Sequence record: PP989838.1
Length of the DNA: 64,000 nucleotides
DNA from: Escherichia phage VTCCBPA_211
Reading direction: 5' to 3' (one strand)
The notes below the pieces were generated by a model that saw only the letters and a list, made by a program, of their open reading frames with translations, was not told where the DNA came from and did not search any database. Position 1 is the first letter of the stretch, and each line of letters begins with the position of its first letter. The translations under genes were made by a program, and so were the position numbers. Below, one piece after another: positions 11,029-25,869 of the stretch.

Positions 11029-12276
11029 ATGTCAAAGATCATTTTGGGAGACACAGGTTGTAAGGAATGTATCTCTCATGGTCGTGATAAAACCCACAAC
11101 CACATGATTCTCTTCCGTAACGAAGAGACTGGTGAGGAGTGGGGAAGTTGTAACCGTTGTGGGAATTACGAAGTGTTCGAAAAGGGCACTACACCTACTC
11201 CAAACGAGAAGAAAGAGTTATCCCCTGAAGAGTTGAGAGAAGTCTTAGATGATTGCTTAGAGCTTCCTCAGGGTGAACTTACTCGCCGTTTAATCCCTAA
11301 AGCTGTATCAGAGCGGTTTGAGTGTCGTATTGGCCTCAGTCAAACTGATGGTCAGACACCAGACAGTTACTTCTTTCCTCGTGAACGTGATGGAAACATT
11401 GTCGGATACGAGGTTAAGCTGCTAGATAGTAAGAAGTTCTATTACGTCGGCAGTGTGAAAGAAGCAGATTTGTTCGGTATGGCACAAGCTCAACGTGGAG
11501 ATGTGTACAACAAGAAGCTGTTCATTTTTGAAGACCCGCTATCCTGTATGTCAGGTTTCCATGTCCTTACAGCTTTTACAAATGCAACAAATATTAAACC
11601 AGCATGTGTTTCTTTACCGTTCGGTGCAGGTTCAATCTCTTCTGTGTTGTCTCGTAACCGAGACTTCGTAAATGGTTTTGAGGAGGTTGTGCTCTGCATG
11701 GACAACGATGATGCAGGTGAGATAGCTTTAACAAAAGGTCGTTCTTTATTCCCTCATGTTAAGTTTGCTCGTATTCCTAAAGGAACTTTCCCATACAACG
11801 GTGTGGAGAAAGAGATTAAGGATGCGAATGACATGCTTCTGTCTGGTCGTGGTCAAGAGTTATTCAACATTCTCAAGTACTCAGCAAAGCGGGAATCTCC
11901 TGCTGGAGCTGTAACAATCTTTGATTGTCTTGATGATGCTCTGAAGAAAGCGGAGTGGGGTATCCCATATCCGTGGAAGACTCTGAATGAGATGACCTTC
12001 GGTATTCGATGGGGAGAGGTGGTAGCAATTGGTGGTGGAGTAGGGAGTGGTAAAACACTCATTGCTCACGAGCTGGTTGCTCATCTGTGCTTAGAGCATG
12101 GTTTTAATGGAGGTGGCTTCTTCTTGGAAGAGAAGGTAGGCATGTCTGTTAAGAACATTGCTGGTAAGTCAGCATCAATTCCTTTCCACCGACCTGATGT
12201 TGAATATGATGAGGAGGATTTGCGTAATGAAGCACTTCGTTATGCAGACAAATTCTTCTTGTATGACAACTTCGGT
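11029..12276 (+). CDS. DNA primase-helicase (T7 gp4-like), exon 1
   Basis: N-terminal Zn finger CKEC...CNRC, TOPRIM-like VVLCMDNDDAG, Walker A GGGVGSGKT; ends at YDNFG, matching T7 gp4 HLYDSFA; strong AAGGAGGA SD. Confidence 0.8.
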
Positions 12277-12997
12277 TAACACAATGGCCGAAGTAAAACT
12301 AGGTGAATTCAGGGAAAGCTAAGTCGAAAGATATGCCAATCCTGAGCGAAGCCCTTCTCCTCCTATAGCACAAGGAGGTAATTCATGAAACGAATCACAG
12401 GATACGAAAACTACACCATTTCTGAAAACGGTGAGGTTTTTAATAACAGAGGTGCTCAATTAAAACCTTTTGTGAATAAAGGCAGAAATGAGTACTTGAG
12501 AGTGACACTAAGCTGTAGAGGGAAATCTAAACATTTTCTTGTTCACAGATTGGTTGCTCAAGAATACCTTAAAGATTTTAACCCGAATCTCCAAGTAGAC
12601 CACATGGATGGTGACAGTAGAAACAACCACCACTCAAACCTCCAAATGGTTACTTGCAAAGAAAATAACTCACTTGCTTCACAAAGAGAGTGGGAAAAGG
12701 GTGGTAATCAAAAACATTCTGATGATACAGTAAGGGAGGCCATAAGGCTTTCTCTAGATATGTCAACAGATAAGGTTGGGGAATTACTAGGTATCTCAGG
12801 GAGACAAGTCAGACGATACAGAAGTTTGACAAGTCGAAGATTTGTTGGAGAAGGGAACGTGCAGAGACTATCCGAAAGGAGTACACTGGAAGCTAATGAC
12901 AGTGGAAGCGCCTAGCCCCTTAACAGGGTGATGATATAGTCCAATCCCGTGGGAAACTGCGGGCAGTAGCCATGATGCTACGGGTAAAGGAGTTGCG
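12277..12997 (+). mobile_element. group I intron in the primase-helicase gene
   Basis: P1: exon end CTTCGGT pairs with internal guide GGCCGAAG including the U-G wobble at the splice site; P4-like TCAGGGAAAG / AATCCTGA; R-like CAGAGACTA and S-like GATGATATAGTCC; G at 12997 before the in-frame exon 2. Confidence 0.6.
12385..12915 (+). CDS. HNH homing endonuclease (intron-encoded)
   Basis: HNH-family motifs (FLVHRLVAQEYL ... DHMDGDSRNNHHSNLQ); sits inside the intron with an AAGGAGGT SD. Confidence 0.8.
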   Translation: MKRITGYENYTISENGEVFNNRGAQLKPFVNKGRNEYLRVTLSCRGKSKHFLVHRLVAQEYLKDFNPNLQVDHMDGDSRNNHHSNLQMVTCKENNSLASQREWEKGGNQKHSDDTVREAIRLSLDMSTDKVGELLGISGRQVRRYRSLTSRRFVGEGNVQRLSERSTLEANDSGSA

Positions 12998-13558
12998 TCC
13001 TTTATTGAATTATTGCAAAATGAATGGGAAGACATTAAACAGTGTATCCGTTTCTGGGTAGTTGAAAACCAGTGTAAGTTCATCATCCTTGATAACATTA
13101 CCGCTCTGGTGTCTCATTTAACACCTTCAGAGATTAACACTGAAATCAGTAAGATTGCTTCCGAGCTTGCTGGTATGTGTAAAGAGTTAGACTTTACCGC
13201 TTTCGTGCTATCTCACCTTAATGCTCCGGCAGGTGGTGCTCCTCATGAAGAAGGTGGACAGGTACGTGAAGTACAGTTCACTGGCTCTCGTTCTCTTATG
13301 CGTTGGTGTCAGTGTATCATTGGCTTTGAGCGTGACAAGCAAGCTGACGGCTTAGCTAAGAACCTCTCAGTCATTCGATTACTGAAAGAACGTAACTACG
13401 GTCAGACAGGTGTATGTTATACTAAGTATATCAGTGAAACCGGTAGACTTGTAGAAAGGGAAGACTTTGAAGTTGATGAAGATAATCCATTCGTTTTAAC
13501 TAACGGAGAGGATGCAGCTTCTCTCGTCAACCAAGCAGATGGAGCTTCACCGTGGTAA
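12998..13558 (+). CDS. DNA primase-helicase, exon 2 (helicase C-terminal part)
   Basis: [14 protein letters not shown] (Walker B-like, compare T7 DVIILDHISIV) and downstream helicase motifs; reading frame is open upstream of the track start; exon start inferred from the splice prediction. Confidence 0.7.
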
Positions 13559-14109
13559 AGAAAAAGAAGAAAGTGTTTGCATTCGATATCGAGAGTAATG
13601 CACTGTACGATGACATAACTAAAGTATGGTGTATTTATATCTTCGATGTTGAAACTGGTGAAAGGTGGGGCTATCGGCCTCACCAAATTGAAGATGGGAT
13701 TCGTAAACTTACAGAAGCAGATGTACTGGTGGGTCACAATATTATTGACTTCGACCTTTGTGCTCTGAAGAAGATGTATCCCAATCTGATTAACTATCGT
13801 TTTAACGTCTTCGACACTTTATGTCTTAGTCGATATCTTAAACCTGACCGTATTGGTGACAGTCCTGAGTATCCGAAAGGCGACCCTAGACGTGGCCCAA
13901 GAGGTCATGGTTTGAAGCAGTGGGGTGAGTTCTTAGGAGAGCTTAAGGGCGATTATGGTGAGCAAGAGGAAGCATGGGATGCTTTCACTGAAGATATGTT
14001 TACTTATTGTGAACAGGACGTTAACTTAACTGTTAAGGTTTATCTTTTCTTGTGTGAGCTCACGGGATTTGACCCTTACGACCCACCTTCATTATATTGG
14101 AAAATGTAA
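13552..14109 (+). CDS. DNA polymerase I family 3'-5' exonuclease domain protein (separately encoded)
   Basis: Exo I FDIESN, Exo [12 protein letters not shown], Exo III YCEQDV; collinear with the T7 DNA polymerase N-terminus; ends in a stop after the exo domain. Confidence 0.75.
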
Positions 14110-23336: not shown

Positions 23337-24682
23337 GTGAGCAACCCGGACGCTCTTCCATTTTTGACAGAGATGACTGTCGCTGATATAATCTCTAAGC
23401 AAGCAAAGCACGGAGTGAGTTTCAACCGAAGAAATGCTCGGTGGTATGTTCACCTCCTTAAAGAGATTATTGTTAATATTGACAGAGAGTTGATTCCTCT
23501 CTTACCTAAGATGAGATTAGACGGCTCTACTTATATGAAGCCGTTTAAGAAGTCTGGAGCTTTACAGAAGTGGCCTCAAGCTTATTGTGATAGGGTTGGG
23601 CTGAAGAGAGAAGATATTGGTGGAGCTTTCACCTGTGTCGAATATGTAGACTTTGACCCATCGAAAGATGCACGAGTTAAAGAAGCTCTTATGGATGAGG
23701 GCTTTCTTCCTCCAGAGTTTAATGTATCTAAGAAGCCTTGGAATACTTTCGAAATTAAGAAAGATATGAGAAAGTATGGAACATACCAAGCATGGTATAC
23801 TGCTTGGATGCGAGGCAATGCTAAGCAGAAGCAGACAGCCGAGATGGTTGACGCTGATATTAAGAAGTTCTTAGAAAAGCATTTCAGGTTTAAAACTAAG
23901 AACTATATGAAGGCTTACGTATTTGGTTTGGGATTAAACCCTAATCGTCGTAATCCTGTAACGTTTGATGAGATTAAGAAAGCGCTAGCCACATCAAACA
24001 AGTGGCCTACAGCTCCTACAAACCTCGAGGAGACTCTTGAAGAAGGGTTAGGGGGTGAGCTAGGGAGTGTCGGAAGTTTGCTTAAGAGACGCGTTGTAGC
24101 GGCTCACAGGCTAGGTCTTATCAGTGGACTTATAGCAAAGGAACGCGAAGATGGTAAACTTTCGGCAGAAGCTAACAGCTGCGCTACGCCGACTTTTCGA
24201 TTCAAACATCGTATCGTGGTTAATATTCCCTCCCGTGGTCTGTTTGGTCACGAGTGTCGCAGTTTGTTTGAGTCTGACTATAACTCAGACAGTGATCACT
24301 CTCGTCCTTTCGTTATTACTAACGCTGTTCCTGATGGTTGTTATATACGAAAAGGTACTAACGTAATTTACGAGAAAGGTAAGCCGGGGAAGAAAGACAA
24401 ACCTGTAGGCGCTTACAAATATTACATACCCGCTGGTAAAGAAGTATTCTTAGGGTATGATGGTTCTGGACTTGAACTTCGTATGTTAGTGCATTATCTT
24501 GTGAAAGAGTGCCTTGACATGATGGAAGAAGCCAAAGCAGAGAACGATAAAATTAAGTATCTAAGGGCTGAGAAAGGTTTAGAGGCTGCTTATACTTATC
24601 GAGAGGTTCTTCTCTCAGGTGATATCCATTCCCACAACCAGAAACTAGCTGGCCTACCAACTAGAGATAATGCAAAGACGTT
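23337..24682 (+). CDS. DNA polymerase I family polymerase domain, exon 1
   Basis: Motif A LGYDGSGLELRML and start of motif B RDNAKTF, collinear with T7 DNA polymerase; GTG start with AAAGGAG SD. Confidence 0.75.
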
Positions 24683-25370
24683 TAACACAATGGGCGTCTA
24701 TAAATTCCTTTAATTCGGTGGACATCTAGAACAGATAATACCGAGCCAAGCCATCCAATCTGCCTTGAAGACAAGGAGGTGGATTATGATTTGCAGGATT
24801 TGTAAAGAAGATAAAAGCGAAGACAATTTCCACAGAAACAGAACAAACGTGACTGGACTAGACTACAGGTGTAAAGCTTGTAGGAGAGAAGAAGCACGAA
24901 TTGGAAGAGAGAGCAATTACTTCCAACACTACTGTAGAGGAAAGAAATCTGAATGTAAGATAAAGGGTTATGATTTTGACTTAACTCCAGAGTTCTTAGA
25001 AGAGATTTGGACAGGATATTGTCCAATATTTGGTGTAGAAATCTCAAGAGCTTCGGAAGGAAGAGGATCTCACAACTCAGCACATTTGGACAGAATAGAT
25101 TCAAGTAAGGGTTACCTAATAGGTAACGTATCTTGGATTAGCGGCAGAGCAAACCGTATAAAATATGATGCTACTGCTAAAGAGCTTAGATCTATTGCAG
25201 ATTGGATGGAAGGTGTAACGACTAGTCGTGATGAGTTTAGCGACGTAGGGCCAAGCGGCTCGAAACAAGGAACCTCTTAAAAGAGGAAGAGATAGTCTGC
25301 TCTGCATGGGGACATGCAGCAGTTCATAAGAGAACGGGGGGAGTGGTAGCGTACTCCCTTGAACATCAGG
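24683..25370 (+). mobile_element. group I intron in the DNA polymerase gene
   Basis: Begins with the same 11-mer TAACACAATGG as the helicase intron; guide GGGCGTCT pairs with exon end AGACGTT; R-like AACGACTAG and S-like AAGAGATAGTCT; G at 25370; splicing restores KTF-IYGFLYGAG. Confidence 0.6.
24786..25280 (+). CDS. HNH homing endonuclease (intron-encoded)
   Basis: HNH motifs (HLDRIDSSKGY ... NVSWISGRANRIK), Cys pairs; ATG at 24786 with AAGGAGGTGG SD. Confidence 0.75.
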   Translation: MICRICKEDKSEDNFHRNRTNVTGLDYRCKACRREEARIGRESNYFQHYCRGKKSECKIKGYDFDLTPEFLEEIWTGYCPIFGVEISRASEGRGSHNSAHLDRIDSSKGYLIGNVSWISGRANRIKYDATAKELRSIADWMEGVTTSRDEFSDVGPSGSKQGTS

Positions 25371-25869
25371 TATCTATGGATTTCTATATGGGGCAGGCGC
25401 AGCTAAGATTGGAGAGATTGTTGGAGGAGGCGCTCAAGAGGGTGAAATTCTCAGAGAACGTTTCTTAGCAGAATGCCCTTGTATCCCAATTGTCTTGGAG
25501 AGAGTACAAGCTCGTGCAGAAACAGGCACTCTTGAAGGTGTGGATGGTCGTAAGTTGACCATGAGACGGGATGCCACTGGTAAAGTTATGGTTCATAAAG
25601 CACTAAACACTTTACTTCAGAGTGCGGGTGCTATTGTCATGAAATATTCTATTCTCTTCACAAACAAGTGGGTAGATCAGCAGAACATTAGGGGTAACAA
25701 AGTAATTGACTACCATGATGAAGCTCAGTGGTCTGTTAACCGTAACGATGTTGATAAGATGAAAAAGATAGCTGAGACTTGTGTCAAGAAGGCGGGTGAG
25801 TACCTAAACATGCACTGTGAGCTAGCTTCTGATTGTAAAATCGGACTGAATTGGATGCAAACTCACTAA
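25371..25869 (+). CDS. DNA polymerase I family polymerase domain, exon 2
   Basis: In-frame YGFLYGAGAAKIGEIVGGG (rest of motif B) and motif C VIDYHDEAQW; the reading frame is open upstream of the track ORF. Confidence 0.7.

Follow-up and report, generated by a model that had tools for sequence, protein, structure and literature searches.

The DNA polymerase gene of Escherichia phage VTCCBPA_211 (sequence record PP989838.1) is interrupted at positions 24683–25370 by an insert of 688 nt, which we identify, with a probability of roughly 0.92, as a mobile self-splicing group I intron of the phage IA2 type, located in the motif B Phe codon of a Kuravirus family-A polymerase. This assignment is carried by an exact splice junction, a covarying ribozyme fold, relationships to introns at the same site in other phages and the fold of the encoded nuclease. 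The window, i.e., the whole stretch of DNA analyzed, comprises 64,000 nt; coordinates refer to the strand shown, and the polymerase exons and the elements of both introns lie on this strand (+). The window is a genome of a Kuravirus phage (phiEco32/SU10-like, Gordonclarkvirinae); some 90 records of Escherichia and Shigella phages from the phiEco32/SU10-like group match it with 87–95% identity in the polymerase region and with 98–99% in the helicase region.

The splice junction and the restored polymerase gene

In the list of open reading frames (ORFs), the polymerase frame that begins at 23337 meets a stop codon at 24711–24713, after ...RDNAKTFNTMGVYKFL, and is thereby cut within motif B, as the initial annotation had stated. 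Deletion of 24683–25370 fuses exon 1 (23337–24682), which ends with the TT of the motif B Phe codon, to exon 2 (25371–25869), which holds the remainder of motif B, motif C and the C-terminus. T24682 and T25371 then form the Phe codon TT/T (the slash marks the junction), and the fused frame reads ...RDNAKTF-IYGFLYGAGAAKIGEIVGG. The predicted junction in the nucleotide sequence is ...AAGACGTT/TATCTATGG..., and the 3′ end of the intron is G25370. The spliced gene of 1346 + 499 = 1845 nt codes for 614 amino acids. The uninterrupted polymerase coding sequences (CDSs) of phages SU10 and SDYTW1-F1-2-2_3 (SDYTW1) are likewise 1845 nt long and collinear with the spliced gene without a gap, the insert is the exact length gap relative to the intron-less alleles, and the spliced protein is near-identical to that of SDYTW1 over the junction. 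The splice proposed earlier, from T24682 to T25371 after G25370, is thus fixed to the base by the comparison with intron-less genes of related phages that had been suggested as a check.

The spliced protein also aligns with T7 DNA polymerase, gap-free across RDNAKTF/IYGFLYGAG and with 19 identical residues (LPTRDNAKTFIYGFLYGAG), so that removal of the insert restores an intact host gene that is contiguous relative to T7. Beyond these residues there are a few substitutions (GAAKIGEIVG in the window, GDEKIGQIVG in T7), and the earlier description of the match as residue for residue was slightly overstated. We take the junction region to correspond to the O-helix of T7 gp5 with K522 and Y526, and the break would then presumably lie in the Phe524 codon (~760 in the numbering of E. 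coli Pol I).

The SU10 polymerase gene has a mosaic relationship to that of the window, with 96–100% identity over roughly the first 1140 nt and 55–82% from there to the end (window 24477–25869 compared with 3678–4382 of the SU10 sequence L001); the SDYTW1 gene is 80–100% identical throughout. This mosaic boundary is found ~200 nt 5′ of the site of the intron and may mark a tract of ancient co-conversion or recombination. The family-A polymerase is moreover divided between two genes about 9 kb apart, with the 3′–5′ exonuclease subunit at 13552–14109 and the polymerase subunit at 23337–25869. The same two-gene arrangement is annotated in phiEco32, and this split is therefore independent of the intron.

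The ribozyme fold

Every helix of a group I core, i.e., P3–P8 with the P, Q, R and S elements and the P3/P7 pseudoknot, can be placed in the insert with support from covariation. Twelve intron cores were aligned: that of the window together with those of eight phages from the database, a contig from IMG/VR and two from Logan. An artificial GAAA stood in for the ORF segment. From this alignment, RNAalifold recovers P1, P3, P4, P5, P6a, P7.1, P7.2, P8, P9, P9.1 and P9.2, with compensatory changes in 42 of 71 pairs. The full structure adds P6, the P7 pseudoknot and P9.0; in it, 96.9% of the cells are paired, compared with 35–42% when the partner columns are slid by 1–3 positions, and changes on both sides are found in 43 of 72 pairs; the observed values were reached by none of 500 shuffles. 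Profiles made from the introns of the other phages match the window at 24683–24757 (E = 3.6e-22) and 25202–25370 (E = 1.1e-36), and more weakly (E = 0.1 and 1.4e-6) at a second intron in the helicase gene, with no further matches in the window.

P1 is formed by the exon sequence AGACGUU and the intron nucleotides UA (24676–24684), which pair with UGGGCGUCU (24691–24699) around the loop ACACAA; all nine pairs are kept in the 12 sequences, and the splice-site U24682 forms a wobble pair with G24693. The guide (GGGCGTCT, 24692–24699) is indeed complementary to its own exon end, AGACGUU, and in the Ralstonia phage DU_RP_I a G-C pair of P1 is compensated to C-G (exon AAGACCTT with guide GGGGGTCT). 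The AUG at 24690–24692 could pair with UAU of exon 2 (25371–25373) to give P10. The interval between P1 and P3 consists of AUAAA alone, P2 being absent. P3 (UUCCUU/AAGGAA, 24705–24710/25267–25272) is 100% paired, with both sides altered in five of its six pairs. Within J3/4, an in-frame UAA (24711–24713) ends the ORF 23337–24713 and would stop ribosomes that enter the unspliced RNA from exon 1; in seven of eight database relatives, the upstream polymerase CDS likewise stops 30 nt after the start of the intron.

P4 (UCGGUG/UACCGA, 24715–24720/24739–24744), with the P and Q elements, encloses P5 (UCU/AGA, 24725–24727/24733–24735) and is followed by P6 (GC/GU, 24745–24746/25213–25214). The 10-bp helix P6a, with CCAUCCAAUC as the 5′ strand (24751–24760) and GAUUGGAUGG as the 3′ strand (25200–25209), covaries in 10 of 10 pairs and encloses the start of the intron ORF. 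P7 pairs GACUA of the R element (25220–25224) with UAGUC of the S element (25293–25297), is invariant in the 12 introns and agrees with the Rfam parse of the DU_RP_I intron; the R-like and S-like elements noticed earlier are present as GUAACGACUAG at 25216–25226 and AAGAGAUAGUCU at 25287–25298. P7.1 (GUCG/CGAC, 25225–25244) and the likewise covarying P7.2 (GGGCC/GGCUC, 25248–25261), which together covary in 8 of 8 counted pairs, are joined by an invariant GUA linker (25245–25247). The P8 hairpin (CCUCU-UAAA-AGAGG, 25273–25286) carries the stop codon UAA of the ORF in its loop. The 3′ strand of P7, P9.0 (CU/AG), P9 (CUGCAUG/CAUGCAG with a GGGA loop), P9.1 and P9.2 occupy 25293–25369, and the omega-G at the 3′ splice site (25370; alignment column 270) is, like the U-G wobble in P1, kept in 12 of 12 aligned introns.

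The definition of IA2 given for the PhiI/W31 and Pf-WMP3 introns includes P7.1 and P7.2 joined by G-U-A (PMC3428280). The VTCCBPA_211 intron has this arrangement between P7 and the 3′ strand of P3, together with an ORF in P6a that reads into the core and the absence of P2. Splice sites, guide, R and S elements and the covarying fold thus bear out the group I reading of the initial annotation.

Some structural and class alternatives were rejected. For P9.1, a long-range GUUCA/UGAAC pairing was discarded in favor of a local hairpin that covaries (GG..CC in PKM.Hi.22.6 and BUCT695, GUC-GAAA-GAC in phiEa100). Two additional RNAalifold helices were not adopted, one (110–121) because it conflicts with P6 and P7, the other (197–200/269–272) being replaced by the 2-bp P9.0. 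An intein is rejected by the in-frame stops and the mid-codon junction of the insert, and a group II intron by the group I core that the insert carries.

Splicing would follow the standard group I route, in which the pre-mRNA folds first and P1 arises by pairing of the guide GGGCGUCU with AGACGUU of the exon, placing the wobble pair U24682-G24693 at the splice site. Exogenous guanosine would attack 3′ of U24682, G25370 would then enter the guanosine site in P7, and the short P10 (UAU with AUG) would align exon 2. Ligation of the exons would restore the 614-residue polymerase; unspliced RNA would give only a truncated protein ending at 24711–24713.

The predicted intron-encoded nuclease

The intron ORF (24786–25280, 164 residues) encodes a PacI-like protein of the HNH/His-Me finger endonuclease type, as judged from PHROG families, profile comparison, AlphaFold and Foldseek results and context. 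Its ATG at 24786 lies 8 nt downstream of the ribosome-binding site GGAGGT, and the protein begins with a CxxC...CxxC zinc ribbon. The Shine-Dalgarno sequence AAGGAGGT (24773–24780) is located in a local hairpin (minimum-energy fold −12.7 kcal/mol, z = −3.4) and is fully or partly paired in each of the 12 introns for which a fold was computed; with its ribosome-binding site sequestered in this manner, the ORF probably yields little protein. It reads through P6, P7, P7.1 and P7.2 as far as the P8 loop, where it ends, and its last ~26 residues are encoded by the ribozyme core. At 25200–25280 the DNA has a dual coding role, with DWMEGVTTS encoded by the 3′ strand of P6a, J6/7 and P7, and the conservation of DWMEGVTT probably reflects constraints on the RNA, not on the protein.

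Neither Pfam, HNH models included, nor a single-sequence search of the PDB gave a match to the ORF. PHROGs returned two families annotated as ‘endonuclease’ (phrog_3322, E = 7e-33; phrog_1035, E = 7e-26), and a profile of the ORF family matched PacI over its full length in the PDB (3ldy, E = 0.0038), with the motif LDRIDxxKGY..GN....RANRIK aligned with VDRSDSFEGY..QN....ICNRIK of PacI. The AlphaFold model has a predicted local distance difference test (pLDDT) score of 87.3, with residues 150–164 at low confidence (pLDDT <50), and PacI is also its sole significant Foldseek match (3ldy_A, E = 4.7e-4, probability 1.0); Cas9, Gme, McrA and colicin HNH domains scored below significance. The model contains the elements of a ββα-metal fold, with strands 98–103 and 115–119 followed by helix 120–124.

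Residues C3, C6, C79, L101, D102, R103, G109, Y110, N114, A122, N123, K126 and E133 are invariant in the ORF family, and C29 and C32 are near-invariant. Tyr110 aligns with Tyr100 of PacI; His100 is kept only in the closest relatives. Of 189 metagenome homologues, a single distant one carries a precomputed Pfam domain, and in the three genomic contexts viewed the homologue sits between DNA_pol_A fragments (3/3). Look-ups of the exact protein with both candidate starts found no public contig, the nearest proteins being 94% (partial) and 81% identical.

PacI is described (PMC5714182; PMC3384342) as the founding member of ‘group 20’ of the His-Me finger nucleases, whose members lack the catalytic His and use a Tyr in its stead. 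As the best match by profile and by fold, PacI (PDB codes 3ldy and 3m7k) shares with the intron protein the motif xDRxDxxxGY...N...CN/ANRIK, the conserved Tyr and the exchange of the catalytic His for Arg. It is, however, a bacterial restriction enzyme with an 8-bp site and two Cys4 zinc sites, whereas the intron protein keeps the N-terminal CxxC...CxxC only, and the similarity is weak, at 18% identity and a template modeling score of ~0.4. The intron ORF is thus a His-less, PacI-like member of the HNH/His-Me superfamily. The previous label ‘HNH endonuclease’ holds at the level of the superfamily, by way of profile and fold matches to PacI, but not in the narrower sense, as there is no Pfam HNH match and the catalytic His is replaced.

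It would also be conceivable that the ribozyme splices but that the ORF is a decaying or domesticated remnant in an intron that is no longer mobile, which we regard as unlikely, yet less so than the other alternatives considered below. The relatives at the same site do span stages of decay, from an ATA start in a Logan contig (L016) through fragmented ORFs in Salmonella phage PKM.Hi.22.6 and a truncated ORF of 81 residues in Erwinia phage phiEa100 to loss of the ORF in DU_RP_I, and the canonical His is missing from the nuclease. In the window, by contrast, the ORF is full length, with an ATG and a good ribosome-binding site; C3, C6, C29, C32, C79, D102, R103, G109, Y110, N114, N123 and K126 are all retained, the model is confident (pLDDT 87), and PacI, with the same His-less motif, is an active nuclease (PMC5714182).

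Several points weigh against the assignment as a mobile self-splicing group I intron. Rfam gave no match at the gathering threshold in the whole window and, at a relaxed threshold, a partial Intron_gpI match (19.4 bits, E = 0.022) centered on AAGAGAUAGUCU and P9. The invariant Arg103 (LDR) occupies the position of the catalytic His. Splicing in VTCCBPA_211 is predicted from sequence and fold, nuclease activity is suggested by the analogy with PacI alone, and the literature searched contained no experimental test of any member of this exact same-site family. The poor Rfam score is explained by the ORF of ~440 nt within the P6a loop; the ORF-less DU_RP_I intron (243 nt) scores 62.9 bits against Intron_gpI (RF00028; threshold 50, E = 8e-14), and is parsed by Rfam into P1 and P3–P9, without P2.

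Relatives at the same site and a second intron

BLASTN searches with the insert gave matches, either over its full length or to both of its ends, in Aeromonas phage PT2, E. coli phage ULINTec4 and Pectobacterium phage Jarilo, as well as in Erwinia phages phiEa100/phiEa1H, Ralstonia phage DU_RP_I, Klebsiella phage RCIP0053, Salmonella phage PKM.Hi.22.6 and Aeromonas phage BUCT695. Eleven further introns occupy the identical codon position, eight in phage-database records of other families and three in environmental contigs. Their first 22 nt are identical to those of the window intron or differ by at most four substitutions; the inserts in phage records start with TAACACAATGGGCGTCTATAAA, in most copies identically and in the rest with one or two substitutions. 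The common insertion point is AAGACGTT/T...G/TATxTAyG, with the intron end ...AGG in front of T-ATx-TAy-G. PT2, ULINTec4, Jarilo, phiEa100/phiEa1H and DU_RP_I belong to the Autographiviridae and PKM.Hi.22.6 and BUCT695 to the Grimontviridae; RCIP0053 is unclassified.

The cores of the same-site phage introns are 70–75% identical to that of the window over alignment columns, or 72–77% when matches are counted over the longer sequence, and two metagenomic Kuravirus-like contigs reach 84–94% by the first of these measures. The family shares the insertion point, all helices and, in most members, a homologous ORF (37–65% amino acid identity; PT2 65%, ULINTec4 55%, BUCT695 54%). Members differ in their host polymerases, which are only 30–51% identical to that of the window over 261 flanking residues (30–34% for the Autographiviridae carriers, 51% for the Grimontviridae carriers), and some copies are ORF-less, decayed or equipped with another ORF. 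Jarilo and one further copy (L014) have a different ORF in the same ribozyme and site, the ORF is truncated or fragmented in phiEa100, PKM.Hi.22.6 and L016 (ATA for ATG), and DU_RP_I has none. This range of ORF states at one site fits the pattern expected from a homing cycle. The same-site records are annotated with two polymerase CDSs, none of them with an intron; the family is widespread yet un-annotated.

Homing would proceed by cleavage of intron-less polymerase alleles of co-infecting phages near the conserved site by the putative nuclease, followed by recombinational repair that copies the intron and a few flanking exon bases. From −77 to +141 (218 nt), the window differs from the nearest intron-less allele, that of SDYTW1, at −6 and −3 only; both changes are synonymous (AAG ACG vs AAA ACT), and each turns a mismatch into a G-C pair with the guide. 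The patchy distribution in unrelated phages, the series of decaying ORFs and these flanking synonymous changes suggest, indirectly, the behavior of a homing endonuclease.

Some related sequences deserve separate mention. The 1310-bp contig L016 (Logan SRR27212853) carries at 36–724 an intron 90% identical to that of the window in a Kuravirus-like polymerase gene; ATA has replaced the start codon of its endonuclease gene, and the ORF as called lacks the N-terminus and has 143 residues. According to profile matches, the polymerase region of Klebsiella phage RCIP0053 (OR532847) apparently contains three introns of the family (1371–1579, 1819–2493 and 2886–3491 of sequence L008) and that of PT2 two (1501–2178 and 2597–3172 of L003), all annotated as hypothetical proteins or split polymerase. 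A 67-kb contig (Logan ERR13868546) encodes at 2920–3570 a 66%-identical endonuclease homologue in an intron-like insert between two DNA_pol_A fragments, adjoining a primase-helicase gene; the 5′ end of this insert matches the family profile weakly.

The second group I intron of the window (739 nt, 12277–13015) interrupts the primase/helicase gene, as indicated by gene comparison, Pfam and the weaker profile matches. Its removal leaves a gene of 1791 nt that is 98.7% identical to the phiEco32 primase/helicase gene, with the predicted junction ...AACTTCGGT/CAAAATGAA..., and its ORF (12385–12915) has HNH_3, NUMOD4 and HTH matches in Pfam. The exon flanks (12274–12276 and 13016–13021) show three synonymous differences from phiEco32, at −1, +2 and +5; the −1 change, GGA to GGT, creates the exon-terminal U needed at a group I 5′ splice site. 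The exon changes flanking both introns fit co-conversion during homing, selection for P1/P10 pairing, or both.

The two introns share their first 11 nt, as had been pointed out: the window contains exactly two copies of TAACACAATGG, at 12277 and 24683, both directly after the last exon base, where ~0.03 exact occurrences would be expected by chance on both strands of 64 kb. It consists of U-A, the contribution of the intron to P1, then the loop ACACAA, and finally U-G-G, i.e., the partners of U-A and the wobble G; the AUG within it could pair with exon-2 UAU as P10. In relatives elsewhere the 11-mer is found exactly or with one to three changes, and the K1F intron begins with TAACATCATGG, which makes it a signature of the family; being so widespread, it is no evidence of one intron copying itself. 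The same ribosome-binding context, ACAAGGAGGT, precedes both ORFs, also in line with the earlier description. The claim that one family had colonized two genes stands at the level of a structural subgroup, both introns being IA2-like, without P2 and with the ORF in P6a, but does not extend to close kinship, since the aligned cores are ~59% identical and the ORFs, PacI-like in the polymerase and HNH_3+NUMOD4+HTH in the helicase, are unrelated.

That the polymerase intron was transposed from the helicase intron within the VTCCBPA_211 genome, or the reverse, is suggested by the identical 11 nt, by ACAAGGAGGT in front of both ORFs and by the common lack of P2 and placement of the ORF in P6a, but appears very improbable, given that the two cores are no nearer to each other than either is to the K1F intron (~56% for the polymerase-intron core), that the polymerase intron, compared in the same way, shares 70–75% identity with the introns found at its own site in unrelated phages, that the ORFs are unrelated and that the 11-mer is family-wide. 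The two introns were more likely acquired independently than spread within the genome. Still less probable is that a free-standing homing-endonuclease gene split the polymerase into halves that are translated separately and then assemble, for which one may cite the two ‘DNA polymerase’ CDSs annotated around a small ORF in all database relatives and the precedent of fragmented phage genes (some ribonucleotide reductase genes; PMC3045599), but against which stand a break that splits a codon midway along the O-helix, a first start in the exon-2 frame (TTG 25495) that lies 41 codons in and would remove IYGFLYGAGAAKIG..., the covarying group I structure of the non-coding parts of the insert, and the ORF-less 243-nt version at the identical site in DU_RP_I.

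As a mobile group I intron, the VTCCBPA_211 element belongs to a well-established kind of selfish element: such introns with HNH-type endonucleases are reported from phage family-A polymerase genes at sites 674, 676 and 881 in E. coli numbering (PMC3428280). The PhiI/W31/K1F intron (Bonocora & Shub 2004; endonuclease I-TslI) is likewise IA2, without P2, with the ORF in P6a and a sequestered ribosome-binding site, begins with UAACAUCAUGG and resides in a family-A DNA polymerase gene; PMC3428280 names the PhiI/W31 introns as the first of group I to be reported from T7-like phages and describes their Shine-Dalgarno sequence as sequestered. Its site is, however, in motif C (after AWVH, E. coli Pol I 881), not motif B, its core is ~56% identical to that of the window intron, and its HNH family is another one. 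The intron of Pseudomonas phage LUZ24 (Ceyssens 2008), which splices in vivo as seen by ONT-cappable-seq (PMC10914365), is also a motif B group I intron in a podovirus family-A polymerase, similar in size at 669 nt and with an endonuclease ORF, but its splice site lies 5 nt downstream (KTFIY/AF), its 5′ half is different, its 3′ half gives a weak profile match only (E = 2e-6), and its ORF is of the EndoVII type (DHCH...CN) and unrelated to that of the window by BLASTP. The introns of Pf-WMP3, SPO1 and Bastille (I-PfoP3I, I-HmuI and I-BasI) belong to group I too, encode HNH-type endonucleases and interrupt family-A polymerase genes of phages, differing in their site (674 in E. coli numbering) and endonuclease families; that of Pf-WMP3 is IA2 without P2, has an ORF running from P6a into the core, and splices in vivo and in vitro (PMC3428280).

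Neither intron occurs in the ~90 Kuravirus records that match both genes in a collection of 50,697 phage records, the literature searched yielded no paper on introns in phiEco32 or Kuravirus, and searches for phiEa1h and Autographiviridae polymerase introns yielded no description of the O-helix site. A bolder reading, which we hold to be less likely than not, is that the two introns may be the first recorded invasion of Kuravirus by mobile group I introns, that the O-helix-site family may move between Autographiviridae, Grimontviridae and Gordonclarkvirinae, and that the nuclease may be the first PacI-type HNH homing endonuclease (Tyr for His), a biochemically uncharacterized class. The polymerase intron itself is a real, ordinary mobile intron that leaves the general understanding of group I introns unchanged, with a modest added interest in the PacI-like nuclease and the cross-family distribution. 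The nuclease could offer a new rare-cutting or nicking activity aimed at a conserved motif of the polymerase. For VTCCBPA_211 and at least seven named public phages, the polymerase and helicase genes should be annotated as single spliced genes, which would replace split genes and ‘hypothetical proteins’. With the same ribozyme at the same O-helix codon of polymerases that are ~30% identical, and with the ORF present, absent or different, the same-site set provides a compact natural series for the homing cycle of invasion, decay and loss, and is useful for following horizontal intron flow among coliphages of therapy collections.

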